Position numbers and translations under genes: made by a program. DNA of 64,000 bases from Yuukianura sp. NJ FZ-2021 (taxonomy: Eukaryota), in NCBI GenBank assembly GCA_046563655.1, contig CM102287.1, positions 8,494,001-8,558,000 of the forward strand, given 5' to 3'. Of this stretch, positions 3-5,107 are shown piece by piece. A model generated the notes under the pieces. The model ran no database searches, had not been told where the DNA came from, and saw nothing but the letters and a program-made list of their open reading frames with translations. Each line of letters opens with the position of its first letter. The stretch's first letter is position 1.

Positions 3-1352
3 GAATCTAGCGACGAGTCGGATCCGGATGACATTGACTTGGAGCTTCCCGCTCTTGTCAAATCATCGCTTGACAACCCTTGGTGTTTGACAGATTCGGT
101 GAAGGATAACGACAAGGTCAACATGTACTACACTGGCTACAAGAAGTTTTGGGACGACGTCAACGAACGGAAGGAACGTGAACGTAGAAGACTTGAGAGA
201 GAGGAAGCTCGTCAATTAGCGGAAAAGAAGGCTAAGCAGGAACTTCGAGAAAAACGCAAGGCCGAGCGTCTAGCGGAAGTTGCAAACGAGGACTTAGCGG
301 AAGAAGTTGAAATTATTGCTACCGTAGCTTCTCCCAAGAAGAAGAAAAAGAACAAAGGCAAGAAGAAACCAGTAGTTCCAGCAACTCCGTTGGTGTCTGC
401 CAATGATGTTCCCCAAGAAATGAGTGTAGACGACTTGGACGAATTGATGACCTTGGCCAACCAAAAGTTACAACAAAAGTTAACTAAGGAAGTGAAACGC
501 CTCAATAACAAGAAGCAGCCGACAACTCCGATACAAACCGAAACGGAATCCGAAAGAAGCCGAAGACTTCGAAACCAAGATGGCGACATTGACGAAATCC
601 GTGACCTTGTCGTTGACGAACAAGAAGTTAACTTTGAAGGAAACAATCCAGACGAAGCTCCTCAGAATGTTACTGTCACTCCACAAAATGCAAATACTGA
701 AGAAACTAGCAAGGCCAAGCCTCCGCCAGCACAAAAGATCATCGATCCTACACACTTTTTAGAAATCAAGAAATCAACCAAGTTTGATATGCGAGATGCC
801 CATGCTGATATGGACTCCGACAATGAAATCCTACCAGAAGATGAAGACGACGAAGAACGAGAGCATCTGAAGATGATTGCTGAAGCATTTGAAGATGAAG
901 ATTTGTTGAATGATTTTGAACGGCGAAAAGGCGAAGAAATTGAAGCTGGAAAACCGAAGGACATCAACTTAACACTGCCAGGATGGGGTGAATGGGGTGG
1001 CAAGGATCGTAAACCATCAAAATCGAAACAAAAACGATTTACCAAGAAAGCACCTAAGCCACGCCCCCGTAAAGATGCTGCTCTTCCGCATGTCATTTTA
1101 AATGAAAATGCTAATGCAAAAATCCGGGAGCATCAGGTCAAAAGTCTTCCATTTCCGTTTACACGGGTAGCCGATTATGAGAAAATGGTGAGAGCTCCAA
1201 TTGGTCGTACTTGGATGCCAGAAAAAGCAATGAAGGACCTCATTGCTCCTAAAGTGGTTACTCGTCTGGGACAAGCGATTGCACCAATCAGCGATTCTGT
1301 TCTGTTCAAACCGCGGAATCAGAAGTCCAAGACGCTGAAACTCATCAAGTAG
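3..1352 (+). CDS. UTP14: U3 snoRNA-associated protein 14 (SSU processome), last coding exon; 5' part lies outside the window
   Basis: Frame is open from nt 3 to TAG at 1350-1352. Contains UTP14 C-terminal signatures IAEAFEDEDLLNDFERRK, TLPGWGEWGG, LPHVILNE, SLPFPFT and PIGRTW. AATAAA at ~1477. Confidence 0.92.
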   Translation, partial: ESSDESDPDDIDLELPALVKSSLDNPWCLTDSVKDNDKVNMYYTGYKKFWDDVNERKERERRRLEREEARQLAEKKAKQELREKRKAERLAEVANEDLAEEVEIIATVASPKKKKKNKGKKKPVVPATPLVSANDVPQEMSVDDLDELMTLANQKLQQKLTKEVKRLNNKKQPTTPIQTETESERSRRLRNQDGDIDEIRDLVVDEQEVNFEGNNPDEAPQNVTVTPQNANTEETSKAKPPPAQKIIDPTHFLEIKKSTKFDMRDAHADMDSDNEILPEDEDDEEREHLKMIAEAFEDEDLLNDFERRKGEEIEAGKPKDINLTLPGWGEWGGKDRKPSKSKQKRFTKKAPKPRPRKDAALPHVILNENANAKIREHQVKSLPFPFTRVADYEKMVRAPIGRTWMPEKAMKDLIAPKVVTRLGQAIAPISDSVLFKPRNQKSKTLKLIK

Positions 1353-1768: not shown

Positions 1769-4700
1769 TTATTGAGCTTGCCCTGTACAAACACAATGCA
1801 GTACGAAAGTGGTTTTTAGTGCTTTACGTAAGGATTCTGTATAACTGACAGTTTGAAAAAACTTACATTTGAATTTCGATTCCATAATCCATTCTTGTGC
1901 AGCAGTTCCATCACATTGTGCCAAAACTGGGTTGGTCAAGTCATCCGTCAAGGCTTTGCTGAGACACTTTCCACTCGACATGTGCTTGAGCGTGCGTGTT
2001 GACCGATTGTAGTTCCATGCTTGATTGCCACCAAGGCCATGACATCTTACAAGTTTCACACTAGCAGAAGAGCCAGAACCAGTCGAGTCCAAGCAGTTGT
2101 CGTCGGACATTACTTGCTGTCTCTTCGTATAAGCAAAAACCTGGAACACAGATCAAAAATCAGTTCAACTAACTAGTTTAGTTTGTTAATTTAAGTAAGC
2201 CTTGGATTAATTGCTTCAGTTCTTACTTGGTTTCCACCCAAACCGTGACAGTACCCCATGCCCACTGCTTCGCCGCTCTTCCTTCCCATTGTGTCCAAAC
2301 AGAACTGCGATTCTTCGTTTCTAATTTCTCCCAAATGATAGTAGTCTAAAGGCATAGGAGATTCGGGATAAATGTTTTCCAAGTACCACCGAAAACTTTT
2401 GCAATTTAGCTTCTTCCTGAGATTCACACGCCCTGATACATCTCCAATATCTACTTGTCTTGCTCCTGAAACAACCAAAAATCATCATTACACTTTACAT
2501 TTCAGACTAAAATTGTCAATGTACTAACTAATATTTGCATTCATGATTCTAACAAGCAACCAAAACGTAAGTGAAGCGAGATCAAGCAAGTGAAAGTGAC
2601 GAACATGCAGTGAAAACATAAAGCCAGCATTTGGAGCAAATGAATCAAAATGGTGCACTGGTGATGGTGGTGGTGGTATCCATGGTGGTAAGTGCTGGAA
2701 TGTCGCCAATGTTCCACCAAAATATCCAAATTCCAAACTTTCCAACCTGGAAACATTGCGAAGTAGAAGGATCGCCATTCGTCCAGCCAAACTTCCGCTA
2801 ATCTTCCATTGTTCTTGTCTACGATATGTGAAGTTCCGCCTGGGAATGAATATGGAGTCGTTTTCCGGAAGACATGTCCAACTCTCGAGCAAGGAGTAAT
2901 GACCAGTCGACCTCCGCACATCCAAACCTTAAAAGTCAATTACAGTGGCAAGCATAGTTAGAAACATGTTAAATTCTGCTTAGTGTTAAGATTAATTCGA
3001 TTAATTGAGTTACACATAACGTCCATTTCACTTCCCATTACGCTTCACCCCGAGAAAACAAAAATCAAAAAACGAAAAGCAAACAGAACAAAACGTTTTA
3101 GAAAAAACTGCGAAATCAGCGGAGCTGCAGAGTTCTGGCAGTTTTTAAAAAAGAATTTCGGTTATAAAAACGGTCAACGCAAAAACTGCTTGTAAAATCA
3201 TGAACACAAAAAAACAGAACGTATAACTGAAAGGTAAAAAAATGAAAATAACCTGGACTCATTTCAAAATAAAAGTGCTTCCAATCATCTAACCAAACGT
3301 CTGCTAGGCGAGCTGTGTTGTGCAATATAATTTTGGACACACCTCCAGGGAATGTGTAAGGACTTTTGTCCCGGAAAACGTGCCCAACATGGCTACAAGT
3401 GGCAATTTTCAACAAACCACCACACTGCCATACCTGTCCTCATAATTAGTTTTTTAGACAAACTAAGAACAAACTCAAAATCAAATCAAGTTAGTGTTTA
3501 CGTTACCCGAAATGACATTTCCAAGTTCTCTCCGCCCCAAATGTCCTGCAACATTTTTAGAATACGAATAGTTGATGTAGAATTTTAAAAGTTGTGACAA
3601 CATTGATGCTTGAGAAACTGACCATTCCAGTGTCGTAGGATCCAATCTCATAAAAGTAGTCTCGATCAATTGAAAAGAGACCTCCAGCCATAGTAGGCGT
3701 CAATAGTGGAAGAGTTCTGTCACCTCCTCGTCGTTCCATCTCTCTCTGCGGTACTCGATACCTGTATCGGACAAACAACGAAAGTTACCACCAAGAATTT
3801 CAAATGCGGATCAAACGGAGGTTTAGGTTTGAGTTTACCATCTAAAGTTGAGTTTCCAGTTGAAGCCACCCCAGGTCATGTCACTGGCAGTGACATATTC
3901 AAAGGTATTGTCGGAGATTACGTCAATGATAGGACAAACCACTGATTTCCGATCCTCAGCGATTTCTTTCAACAGCGGCTCAAGCCATCCCTCGGTACAC
4001 TGATAGAACAAACATTATGAGGATTTTTAGGATTTGTGATTTCTCTTCAGTTTGAGGATGCTATTAGAATATGTCGTTATGTATTTACCTCACAATGAGC
4101 ATCCAGGAACGTCAAAGTGGCTCCCTGTAAACGGAACACAGTTTTAGTCTCAAGGATTTTAGAGATGTCATGGTCTGACATGAAGCTTATACCTTTGCAT
4201 TTTTGGCACCAAGGAGTCTGGCCCGGATAAGTCCAGACCGTGTCCCTGTCCGGAAGAGACGTACAGGAACCGGAAGATTCGCAATGTATTCTTCCAGTTT
4301 TGTTCCTAGGAAGTCTCGTTCTGACGCGTCGTCAACGAGAATAATTTCTTTGAGTAGTGCCCTGGGTGACCTATTGATAACGGAATGAACCGTGCGCAGA
4401 AGCGTACTCCAAGCTTCGTTATGGAATACTATGATTATTGACGTATCCGGAAGATATTTAGGATATTTCTTCGATTTGCACCTAGAAAGCCAAATATATT
4501 ACATATTCAATTCTGCTACACTCACTATAAGTTTGATAATTTGAATAGTGAATCTTACCCAGGAAGCCGCACGTCTGGAAGGGACCGATTGAGTGACATG
4601 ACATCCGATGCAAGGACATTGAACTGATTCAATTTAAATTGATCTTGAGCTAAGCGTTCCATGTGCGCTGCCAGTTTGACAGCATGTCCCATTTCCCCTG

Positions 4701-5107
4701 GCTTATTTGGATTTTCTGGCACAATCGGAGCAGACTTCCATAAGTGAAGTTTGTCTTGCGAGTAGAAAGATGACACAGGCTAAGAAATAATCAAAAACCG
4801 ATCAAATAACTCGAATCTCATAATTATTCGGTTCATTATGAACATAACTCACCTTGTCATCCATATCAGCACCGCCACGATGATGCTCGGCTCCTACCTC
4901 ATTGCTATTTTGACTATTGACATTGACCTGGTGAAGGGCTTCAGCAGCTTCTCCATGATGGACGAAAGAATCTGCCGATGGACCCCCGTTCCCAGCTCCA
5001 GCTCGGTTGACACCGTCGGTGTAGTACAGTAATACGACGATGTCGATGAGAAACCATATTAGAGAAGTTGCTAAAATGATTTTACAGGTTTGCATTCGTA
5101 TCCGCAT
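1769..5107 (-). CDS. pgant5: Polypeptide N-acetylgalactosaminyltransferase (pgant5/GALNT1-like): type II membrane anchor, GT27 catalytic domain, ricin-B lectin domain
   Basis: Exons: 5107-4853, 4779-4559, 4481-4193, 4124-4089, 3999-3839, 3761-3623, 3545-3507, [3433-3253 OR 2927-2747], 2465-2227, 2140-1867, 1782-1769. Motifs: [21 protein letters not shown] (DxH), [30 protein letters not shown] lectin repeats, C-terminus MESKFKWQAQ*. Confidence 0.95.
2747..2927 (-). other. GalNAc-transferase mutually exclusive exon B (181 nt)
   Basis: aag|GTTTGG...CCAG|gttgga. Encodes [60 protein letters not shown](G). Same length and phase as exon A. Confidence 0.9.
3253..3433 (-). other. GalNAc-transferase mutually exclusive exon A (181 nt)
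   Basis: cag|GTATGG...CCAG|gttatt. Encodes [60 protein letters not shown](G). Confidence 0.9.

Follow-up and report, generated by a model that had tools for sequence, protein, structure and literature searches.

Why would a polypeptide GalNAc-transferase gene keep two different copies of one exon side by side? This question is raised by a window of 64,000 nucleotides from Yuukianura sp. NJ FZ-2021 (positions 8,494,001 to 8,558,000 of contig CM102287.1, assembly GCA_046563655.1), where an earlier note, made from the DNA letters alone, had described a pair of tandem exons in such a gene and proposed that the gene makes two enzymes. We describe here the anatomy and frame logic of this pair, the probable orthology of its two members (exons A and B) and the purifying selection acting on both of them. 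The gene is very probably the springtail-lineage orthologue of pgant5 (GALNT1/13-like), endowed with a conserved pair of mutually exclusive exons and encoding two enzymes.

The coding sequence was located by tblastn with the Folsomia candida isoform X2 and by Pfam on the minus strand (like all features described below), at approximately 1769..5107, with outer exon borders that are only partly refined. It begins with the ATG at 5105-5107 and presumably ends with the TAA at 1769-1771, in a terminal micro-exon (1769-1782, encoding WQAQ and the stop) deduced from its splice sites and from the KFKWQAQ with which the Orchesella proteins end. Pfam recognised Glycos_transf_2 on 4489-4193 (E 2.8e-17) and 4002-3838 (E 1.3e-06), and Ricin_B_lectin on 2143-1868 (E 1.2e-16); Ricin_B_lectin also matched 2481-2224 with 27.7 bits, under the cut-off of 29. 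The DxH motif is present as the DAH inside FLDAHCE. With its GT-A domain, manganese ligands and lectin domain, the gene product is, judging from its sequence, a polypeptide GalNAc-transferase (a family which we take to be CAZy GT27), with a predicted GalNAc transfer activity. In the tblastn comparison of the Folsomia X2 protein (P0126) with the window, each part of the gene was found a single time, except for the duplicated segment. We thus ruled out the presence of two tandem genes, because every other exon occurs only once.

The duplicated segment stands between two constitutive exons. The upstream one (39 nt, 3507..3545) has an AG before 3545 and a GT after 3507, and ends in phase 0; in frame and splice signals, its donor at 3507 is compatible with either alternative exon. 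The downstream one (2224..2465), which reads (G)ARQVDIGD..., is entered in phase 1 from the AG before 2465 and codes for the last part of the catalytic domain and the first part of the lectin domain, its 3' border at about 2224 being placed by tblastn only. In between are exon A (3253..3433, A-type) and exon B (2747..2927, B-type), both 181 nt long (60 codons plus one base), preceded by AG, followed by GT and free of stops over their 60 residues. The three introns measure 73 nt (I1, upstream exon to A), 325 nt (I2, A to B) and 281 nt (I3, B to downstream exon). Direct reading of the minus strand therefore bears out the earlier description of two open tandem exons of 181 nt, in the same phase, with intact AG and GT, and the coordinates place them, as had been said, between the 3545-3507 exon and the GARQVD exon; the two differing loop sequences that had been quoted match the translations of A and B. 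The A and B peptides are identical at 37 of their 60 residues (62%, BLASTP E = 6e-30), and their likeness is therefore far beyond chance.

The length of these exons, 3n+1 nucleotides, dictates how they can be used. Upon translation of the joined exons, A alone or B alone reads on in frame into the lectin domain, A and B together lead to a stop at 2323-2321, and skipping both leads to a stop after four codons. The frame shift that had been announced for both or neither is thus real and, since each of these two combinations ends prematurely, only mRNAs with a single one of the exons encode the enzyme. We propose that each mRNA would take either exon A or exon B. As a separate observation, a 21-nt inverted-repeat pair is found between the two exons themselves (2859-2879 and 3360-3380); it simply reflects the palindromic TTCCGGAA contained in their common VFR codons.

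Which part of the enzyme is exchanged? In a PDB sequence search, the best matches of the exon peptides were GalNAc-T1 and T2 (E of about 1e-20 to 1e-24), and the A/B segment aligned with residues 342-401 of human GalNAc-T2; the 60-residue peptides taken alone had no Pfam match. The VGHVFR His, residue 18 of either exon, falls on T2 His359 in the alignment, and exon residues 21-32 fall on Arg362-Ser373. According to passages of PMC4432651, the manganese ligands of T2 are Asp224, His226 and His359, and Arg362-Ser373 is its flexible loop. As the segment corresponds to T2 342-401, the VGHVFR His is the counterpart of the manganese ligand His359, and the alignment confirms the earlier statement that this segment carries both the metal-binding His and the flexible loop. 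Either exon would supply this third manganese-binding His, the flexible loop, which closes on both UDP-GalNAc and acceptor peptide, and a helix-turn-helix abutting the lectin domain. Exon residue 22 is Asp in A (FRDKS) and Lys in B (FRKTT); the A form would have an acidic loop residue, and the B form would retain the ancestral Lys.

The A/B exon system of the window is already known, as pgant5 has been described in the fly and Folsomia candida has annotations for both isoforms. Similarly to the window gene, Drosophila pgant5 (UniProt Q6WV17-1/-2) belongs to the GALNT1/13-like family and swaps 60 residues that comprise the flexible loop and helix I-turn-helix II, and at matching loop positions both genes have Asp-Lys-Ser in A and Lys-Ser/Thr-Thr in B. 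The fly B form is the closer one to vertebrate GalNAc-T1. The fly gene belongs to another hexapod lineage, the window exons being 75% (A) and about 70% (B) identical to the fly ones, and the window gene is known from its sequence. Passages of the pgant5 preprint (bioRxiv 10.64898/2025.12.22.695686) state that the two isoforms differ in residues 398-457 (60 aa), with a loop that reads D419-K420-S421 in A and K419-S420-T421 in B; that PGANT5A and PGANT5B have unlike kinetics and in vivo rescue, their difference being described as a shift of activity to, or away from, mucin repeats of positive charge; and that the D419K and K419D swaps bring kcat/KM on Sgs1-MD closer to that of the other isoform. 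In the same passages, the difference in substrate preference is modest (1.6- to 2.7-fold in kcat/KM) and concerns Drosophila only, in a preprint. The word "exon" occurs 0 times in the main text of this preprint, and its passages are silent on exon structure, conservation beyond flies and RNA structure. The fly assays support the proposal of the earlier note that one gene makes two enzymes with unlike peptide preferences; the window gene shares the Asp/Lys difference and, by orthology, both of its forms would be expressed in the window species and would differ in substrate preference.

Alternatively, the helix-turn-helix that comes after the loop and contacts the lectin domain could account for most of the difference between the two forms, in which case the exchange would act on glycopeptide (prior-GalNAc-directed) activity or on stability, and not on a loop-set preference for naked peptides. 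This would fit with the 23 of 60 residues that differ, most of them past the loop, with the diagnostic A/B positions 37, 40 and 43, which are beyond the T2 loop range, and with the end of helix II, where the spliced residues differ between PGANT5 A and B according to passages of the preprint (bioRxiv 10.64898/2025.12.22.695686). We nevertheless regard it as rather unlikely: in these passages single loop swaps, D419K and K419D, moved kcat/KM on Sgs1-MD, and the Asp/Lys position (PGANT5 419), which also served for sorting the rows, does not vary among 43 A and 36 B rows. The loop and the helix-turn-helix are not exclusive of each other.

There are other counterparts. Folsomia candida, a springtail of another family, has two models of GalNAc-transferase 5 (X1, P0229; X2, P0126), which are 608 aa long and identical save for this segment; they are computational RefSeq gene models, and our literature search found no study of them. 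In Drosophila pgant9, similarly to the window gene, an alternative exon (8A/8B) alters the charge carried by a loop close to the active site, hence substrate preference, in a tissue-specific manner; unlike in the window, the swap concerns about 30 residues in the alpha repeat of the lectin domain and not the catalytic flexible loop (PMC6115407). The homologous GalNAc-transferase exons 9a/9b/9c of gly-5 and 8a/8b of gly-6 in Caenorhabditis elegans are mutually exclusive by experiment; unlike those of the window they are 102-111 nt long (3n), so that exclusivity is not enforced by the frame, and very short introns (34 nt, 11 nt) exclude by steric hindrance (PMC4165533). The genes gly-5/gly-6, Pgant5 and GALNT13 have been grouped as recurrent events of tandem-exon substitution (PMC9741552).

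Are both exons of the window maintained? Exon A is 98% identical to that of the metagenome locus L001 and 93% to the Allacma-like sequence P0020, and exon B is 95% identical to that of Orchesella cincta and Folsomia candida X2. When selection was computed for each exon, as had been suggested, pN was far under pS in both: between the window and L001, pS was 0.49 and pN 0.014 for exon A, and pS was 0.77 and pN 0.033 for exon B. Between the window and L002, pN was 0.10 (A) and 0.06 (B), and pS was saturated. Judging from these comparisons, in three springtail-like genomes neither exon is damaged and purifying selection acts strongly on each. These figures (pN 0.014-0.10 against pS 0.49-0.87) bear directly on the possibility that one of the copies is an unused and decaying pseudo-exon, which would leave the gene with a single enzyme. 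The acceptor tract of exon A, purine-rich and weak-looking, would be in keeping with such a decay. Given the selection data, we regard it as very unlikely, all the more so as both copies have 181 nt, AG/GT and an open frame in the window, L001 and L002/L003, as A and B types are both retained across insects and crustaceans, and as the Folsomia candida annotation includes both isoforms. Furthermore, P0020, a contig of 2036 nt, has an uninterrupted ORF of 339 aa that joins SFR, exon A and GAR, and is therefore a spliced A-form transcript of a springtail relative; that the B form is used in springtails is documented only by gene models from databases (those of Folsomia X2 and Orchesella cincta).

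The two maintained exons have counterparts well beyond springtails. When looked for in orthologues, the pair was found, in the A-then-B order, across insects and crustaceans. A precedes B in 17 of 17 database models holding both types (there are 19 multi-copy models), and in all 12 distinct two-copy metagenome loci of arthropod type (L001, L002, L006, L007, L010, L015, L032, L035, L041, L046, L049 and L053, the near-copies L003, L009 and L017 being counted with their twins). Among the window and 11 two-copy loci, 181 nt with AG and GT was found in 12/12 cases for exon A and 11/12 for exon B. The pair, its order and its length of 181 nt are common to springtails, many insect orders, and copepod-, decapod- and Daphnia-like loci.

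Phylogeny was examined with a 105-row tree, in a quick version only, and with a careful tree of 52 rows and 60 alignment columns, chosen so as to represent every major taxon and both copies (the near-identical insect rows were mostly omitted, and the additions were 13 rows from springtails and from Daphnia-like and copepod-like sources). In the 52-row tree, the A clade comprises 22 rows (UFBoot 87 / SH-aLRT 54), pancrustacean A is supported at 83/81 and B with the outgroups at 91/87, and the A-type and B-type groups each contain springtails, insects and crustaceans. Together with the purifying selection on both exons, these wide groups support the earlier idea of an old and maintained duplication.

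Could the exon pair nevertheless have arisen, or been homogenised, within springtails, resembling the insect A and B exons by convergence and not being orthologous to the pgant5 pair? An AU test that forced all 11 springtail A and B rows into one clade did not reject it (p = 0.144, lnL 17 lower, 60 columns), and in the 52-row tree the springtail rows are borne on long internal branches (0.67 and 0.97). Since the AU test does not reject, the evidence for ancient orthology is the free tree, together with the diagnostic residues and the common exon order, which give such a springtail origin only a slim chance. First, in both free trees (105-row and 52-row) the springtail A exons fall inside pancrustacean A, and the springtail B exons join the B-type rows. 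Second, of the seven diagnostic positions, one of which (position 22) also served to define the A and B classes, window A has five A states and one B state, and window B has six B states and no A state. Third, the other arthropod loci share this order, A before B, and the length of 181 nt. Fourth, within species, pS between A and B is saturated (0.71-0.84), so no recent homogenisation took place.

The diagnostic positions also help to tell which copy is the older one in character. Of six rows from outside the pancrustaceans, five (ticks and mites, Lingula, Saccoglossus and the second millipede copy) have 6-7 of the 7 B states, and the nematode row has 5/7; the first copy of the single millipede model is intermediate. 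The three tick and mite proteins examined that hold the segment, a small part of the ranked match lists, are B-type only. By these residue states, B appears as the ancestral-like copy, and A as the derived copy with the acidic loop.

How is the choice between A and B made? Two stretches of the introns, which form an inverted repeat, provide a candidate RNA helix whose arms bracket exon B. Arm 1 (3186..3210) is in I2 and starts 42 nt past the donor of exon A; arm 2 (2534..2559) is in I3, with its end 68 nt ahead of the downstream acceptor. Two simple ungapped helix scores were fixed, and both are given. In the window, the best contiguous helix between I2 and I3 has 18 bp and was reached by 0/200 shuffles; the extended duplex has -32.1 kcal/mol, and the helix is seen in the MFE and centroid folds. 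Both arms are among the clearest conserved blocks between the window and L001, the introns of which are otherwise largely unalignable, and arm 2 has a 13-nt block, TCATGAATGCAAA, that is identical in the two. The arms of the window and L001 differ by one-sided G-U changes only, with no clear compensatory pair. Two other calculations were discarded, namely a gapped local score with cheap mismatches, which did not separate real from shuffled introns (the window I2-I3 value was reached by 4/60 shuffles), and RNA.duplexfold on whole introns, which gave an unrealistic all-through pairing of -100 kcal/mol.

Overall, a helix above shuffles was found between I2 and I3 in 5/11 loci, each reached by 0-1/200 shuffles. 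By comparison, among 22 control intron pairs, none was reached by at most 5/100 shuffles with the same score, and one (I1 with I3 of L046) with the mismatch-tolerant score. In L006, L035 and L041 the helices stand at the same position and are not homologous. The intronic complementarity could well be fortuitous, or serve another purpose, with exon choice left to splice-site competition and protein factors and the frame-shifted products being removed. We hold this to be nearly as probable as not, for 6/11 loci (L002 included) have no such helix above shuffles, the pairing of L002, which is springtail-like, is weak and interrupted (-12.1 kcal/mol), the fold of the entire 787 nt does not exceed shuffles in stability (z = -0.34), and no second, competing pairing was found, neither I1 with I2 nor I1 with I3 giving a helix above shuffles in the window or in L001. 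The low shuffle counts in five loci against those of the controls, the conservation of the arms between the window and L001, and the presence of the helix in both folds speak against mere chance.

A role for the helix has precedents: the mutually exclusive exons of 14-3-3xi and Mhc are controlled by RNA pairing. In Drosophila srp and Dscam1, similarly to the window, complementary elements lie between the variable exons and in the downstream intron, and their pairing loops out the distal exon and brings the donor of the chosen exon to the constitutive acceptor (PMC4691838, which does not mention pgant5). Unlike these genes, the window has one pairing only and no competing upstream pairing. A literature search for RNA structure steering the exon choice of pgant5 found no paper on it and matched only a GBE list paper. 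By analogy, we propose that the pairing of I2 with I3 would loop out exon B and may steer exon choice; from the sequence evidence above, the odds are about even that the helix helps to set the A:B ratio. A wider proposal, towards which we lean slightly unfavourably, is that an I2-I3 helix steers the A/B choice across pancrustaceans, its sequence having turned over between springtail-like, ant-like and two copepod-like loci while its position was kept since before their split.

The exon pair itself adds little, since splicing that retunes the substrate gate of a GalNAc-transferase was already demonstrated for fly pgant5 and pgant9. Yet, as the pair, its order and its length are shared across pancrustaceans, and as B is ancestral-like, the fly result probably describes a very old arthropod mechanism that provides two O-glycosylation specificities from one gene. 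The candidate helix bracketing exon B offers a testable lead on how A or B is chosen; if it were to act across pancrustaceans, pgant5 would be a simple two-exon model of structure-guided mutually exclusive splicing, and an RNA switch would be linked to tissue-specific O-glycosylation specificity. Finally, of the 225 database proteins that two protein searches returned, 19 carry at least two copies of the segment, and annotators should take such repeats as a mark of both alternative exons read into one protein.

Two open exons of exactly 181 nt each lie on the minus strand between a 39-nt exon (3545-3507, ending in phase 0 and followed by GT in the minus-strand reading) and a downstream exon that starts at 2465 and is preceded by AG. 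Re-reading lengths, splice sites and translations from the minus strand, we found exon A (3433-3253) and exon B (2927-2747) to be each flanked by AG on the acceptor side and GT on the donor side; according to the coordinates, the introns before exon A (I1), between the two exons (I2) and after exon B (I3) measure 73, 325 and 281 nt. The two translations align without gaps and are identical at 37 of 60 residues (BLASTP E = 6e-30). When joined in silico, exon A alone and exon B alone both keep the frame into GARQVDIGD..., while joining A and B together shifts the frame into a stop at 2323-2321 and joining neither leads to a stop after four codons; both joinings fail likewise in L001 and L002, two loci from metagenomes. 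The observation of the earlier note, that the paired exons are intact and that taking both or neither breaks the frame, is thus confirmed. Judging from the sequence, the reading frame alone would guarantee that only mRNAs with a single one of these exons encode the enzyme.

Using the full-length Folsomia candida protein P0126 as a tblastn query, we found all other parts of the protein once in the window, from the ATG at 5107 to about 1868. As each of these parts is present once, we are dealing with a single gene with one duplicated exon, and the possibility of two genes is ruled out. The exon translations comprise the Pfam domains Glycos_transf_2 and Ricin_B_lectin, the DxH motif sits in FLDAHCE, and a terminal micro-exon (1782-1769, minus strand) completes ...KFK-WQAQ-stop, as in the Orchesella C-termini. 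The inferred stop of the gene (1771-1769) places it tail-to-tail with the 3' part of a gene for the U3 snoRNP protein Utp14 (3-1352, plus strand; Pfam Utp14 E 2.2e-52), which runs off the window start. The peptides encoded by the exons match the solved GalNAc-T1 and T2 structures (E 1e-20 to 1e-24), and the alternative exon corresponds to residues 342-401 in full-length T2 numbering, so that its His18 equals T2 His359, which binds Mn together with Asp224 and His226 (PMC4432651). The flexible loop of T2, Arg362-Ser373, has its counterpart in exon residues 21-32 (PMC4432651). As previously claimed, the swapped segment therefore holds both the metal-binding His and the flexible loop.

This loop reads FRDKSPY in exon A and FRKTTPY in exon B, and on such sequence grounds we identify the two exons as the A and B forms of pgant5. 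The Drosophila A/B system is treated directly in a December 2025 preprint of the Ten Hagen and Samara laboratories (10.64898/2025.12.22.695686), which reports the following. PGANT5A carries D419-K420-S421 and PGANT5B K419-S420-T421; in the salivary gland PGANT5A predominates, and the knock-down is partially rescued by PGANT5A and not by PGANT5B. The kcat/KM on basic mucin repeats is higher for PGANT5A (2.7-fold for Sgs1-MD and 1.6-fold for Sgs3-MD); D419K lowers the activity on basic mucin repeats, and K419D raises it on Sgs1-MD. By orthology with these enzymes, the proposal that one gene would make two enzymes differing in peptide preference is supported. Tandem duplicated exon substitution is listed for 'GALNT13 (Pgant5, gly-5)' in vertebrates, arthropods and nematodes (PMC9741552), and mutually exclusive exons were confirmed in C. 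elegans gly-5 (9a/b/c, 102-111 nt) and gly-6 (8a/b) (PMC4165533). Unlike the 181-nt pair, the C. elegans exons have lengths divisible by three. The 8A/8B exons of the pgant9 switch lie in the lectin domain (PMC6115407). Our pair represents the known pgant5 A/B switch in the springtail lineage and has low novelty, the A/B isoforms having previously been annotated in Folsomia candida; only the wider comparative picture and a candidate RNA helix bracketing exon B are new.

Springtail proteins are the nearest named matches of both exons. Exon B shares 95% identity with Orchesella cincta and with Folsomia candida isoform X2, and exon A shares 93% with P0020, a database protein that clusters with an Allacma fusca protein. 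The Folsomia candida isoforms X1 (P0229, A-type, i.e. of the class of Drosophila isoform A) and X2 (P0126, B-type) are both 608 aa long and differ solely in this segment; the gene models contain A in Orchesella dallaii and B in O. cincta. The P0020 ORF, uninterrupted over 339 aa of a 2036-nt contig, reads ...EMSFR-(exon A)-GARTVD...; it crosses several exon borders and thus must originate from spliced RNA. It is the sole direct springtail transcript evidence in our analysis, and it is of the A form.

A scan of metagenome contigs with exon A as the query yielded 77 loci. Springtail-like relatives are represented among them by the genomic contigs L001 (98% identical to the window in A and 97% in B) and L002/L003 (90% and 92%), which carry the whole gene, with A and B each exactly 181 nt long and flanked by AG/GT. 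Between the window and L001 (Nei-Gojobori), the synonymous (pS) and replacement (pN) differences are 0.49 and 0.014 for exon A (dN/dS about 0.02), and 0.77 and 0.033 for exon B; between the window and L002 they are 0.87 and 0.104 for A, and 0.82 and 0.057 for B. With synonymous sites at or near saturation and few replacements, both exons are under strong purifying selection, which agrees with the maintained duplication suggested in the earlier note and excludes the neutral decay of one copy. Inside one genome, A and B differ at a pS of 0.71-0.84, so that no recent homogenisation has taken place.

Among the 225 proteins returned by two database searches, 19 contain at least two copies of the segment, and 17 of these have both an A-type and a B-type copy, with the A-type first in every case (17/17). 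These 17 models come from Odonata, Orthoptera, Hemiptera, Diptera, Lepidoptera, Coleoptera, Thysanoptera, Phasmatodea, a copepod, a lobster and a millipede; the other two come from Lingula, where both copies are B-like, and from Phthorimaea, with a single full copy and fragments. The pair was likewise found in A-then-B order in 12/12 distinct arthropod-type two-copy metagenome loci (near-copies L003, L009 and L017 merged with their twins), and the length of 181 nt with AG/GT holds for exon A in 12/12 and for exon B in 11/12 (window and 11 loci). The copepod-like L041 has a longer B-type exon (1457-1646; 63 residues, insertion FPASKGGSVG) with no GT at +181, and an A-to-B intron of just 110 nt. 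The 19 multi-copy public models (317-759 aa; e.g. P0003-P0019, P0123, P0124) present the segment copies in series; since two 181-nt exons cannot share a frame, they are annotation artefacts in which both alternative exons were translated into a single protein and which require non-canonical borders.

Several lines of evidence bear on the age of the pair. First, a quick tree of 105 rows separated an A group from a group comprising the B-type exons and chelicerate, Lingula, Saccoglossus and Gordionus sequences. Second, a careful tree of 52 rows gave the same separation, with UFBoot/SH-aLRT supports of 87/54 for the A group (22 rows including a millipede copy; 83/81 without it), 91/87 for the B group, and 100/99 each for the six springtail A rows and the five springtail B rows. 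Third, 43 A rows are distinguished from 36 B rows by seven positions, six of which are independent, position 22 having also served to define the classes; the A state occurs at 5/7 in window A and the B state at 6/7 in window B, and 7/7 B states are present in ticks and mites, in Lingula copy 1 and in Saccoglossus. On this pattern of trees and diagnostic states, B is the ancestral-like and A the derived copy. As an AU test did not reject a tree uniting all 11 springtail rows (p = 0.144, lnL 17 lower, 60 columns), the case that the pair predates the pancrustaceans, although good, falls short of being formally decisive. In P0124, from the millipede Chamberlinius hualienensis, the first copy falls between the two types (FRDRSPY, with 3 A and 3 B states) and the second is B-type (6 B states), so that the duplication may predate the myriapod-pancrustacean split, P0124 being a long branch with a weakly supported place in the tree.

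Dendroctonus ponderosae (P0003, P0053, P0103, P0178) apparently has more than two alternative copies: four matching stretches occur in one gene model, three RefSeq isoforms each contain a different segment (A-like in two and B-like in one), and the loop of yet another copy includes RGQT. The same exon is duplicated in tandem in non-arthropods (P0019 of Lingula anatina, and L055, L059, L065, L066, L070, L071, L072 and L074), where a GalNAc-T1-like copy (FRKATPY) precedes a far more divergent one, e.g. with FRRF(T/S)PH and an extra GG insertion; the second copies of L074 and Lingula are similar. This duplication may have an independent or an older origin.

An alignment of the window, L001 and L002 introns showed that two of the clearest conserved blocks are mutually complementary and coincide with an inverted repeat from the window scan. 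One arm (3210-3186, minus strand) lies in I2, 42 nt past the exon A donor, and the other (2559-2534, minus strand) in I3, 68 nt ahead of the downstream acceptor. In the window, the helix has 18 contiguous base pairs (G-U allowed), its extended duplex (3210-3186 / 2559-2534) reaches -32.1 kcal/mol, and it is present in the MFE and centroid folds of the 787-nt stretch between the exon A donor and the downstream acceptor. In L001, 15 contiguous pairs form at the homologous places, and L002 has only an interrupted 7+5-bp version (-12.1 kcal/mol). When the best contiguous helix score was compared with dinucleotide-preserving shuffles in 11 loci, the I2xI3 score was reached by 0-1 of 200 shuffles in five (the window, L001, the ant-like L006 and the copepod-like L035 and L041), and by 62-185 of 200 in the other six. 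None of the 22 I1xI2 and I1xI3 controls fell at or below 5/100 shuffles with this score; a mismatch-tolerant score, applied to all pairs, retained the same five I2xI3 loci, with one of the 22 controls at 1/100. The helix sequences are unrelated between lineages, and the window and L001, which share one homologous helix, count as one.

By looping out exon B, such a helix would place the exon A donor beside the constitutive acceptor, as in the 'downstream pairing' half of the model described for srp and Dscam (PMC4691838). That article does not mention pgant5, and our literature search on pgant5 RNA secondary structure or mutually exclusive splicing returned only a list paper in GBE and a study of TDP-43 unrelated to this question. 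Neither a competing upstream pairing nor a clear compensatory change in the helix was found, and the overall 787-nt fold is not unusually stable (z = -0.34). Considering these points and the six loci devoid of the helix, we regard the chances that it steers exon choice as about evenly balanced. Within the I3 arm region, 2542-2553 can pair with 2957-2968 (12 nt, 92%), a site some 30 nt ahead of the exon B acceptor, which may constitute an alternative pairing. Outside the helix, a second conserved block of the intron after exon B, CCACCACCACCATC (2663-2676, minus strand), shows no difference between the window and L001, in spite of a surrounding intron that can hardly be aligned, and may be a binding site for a splicing regulator.
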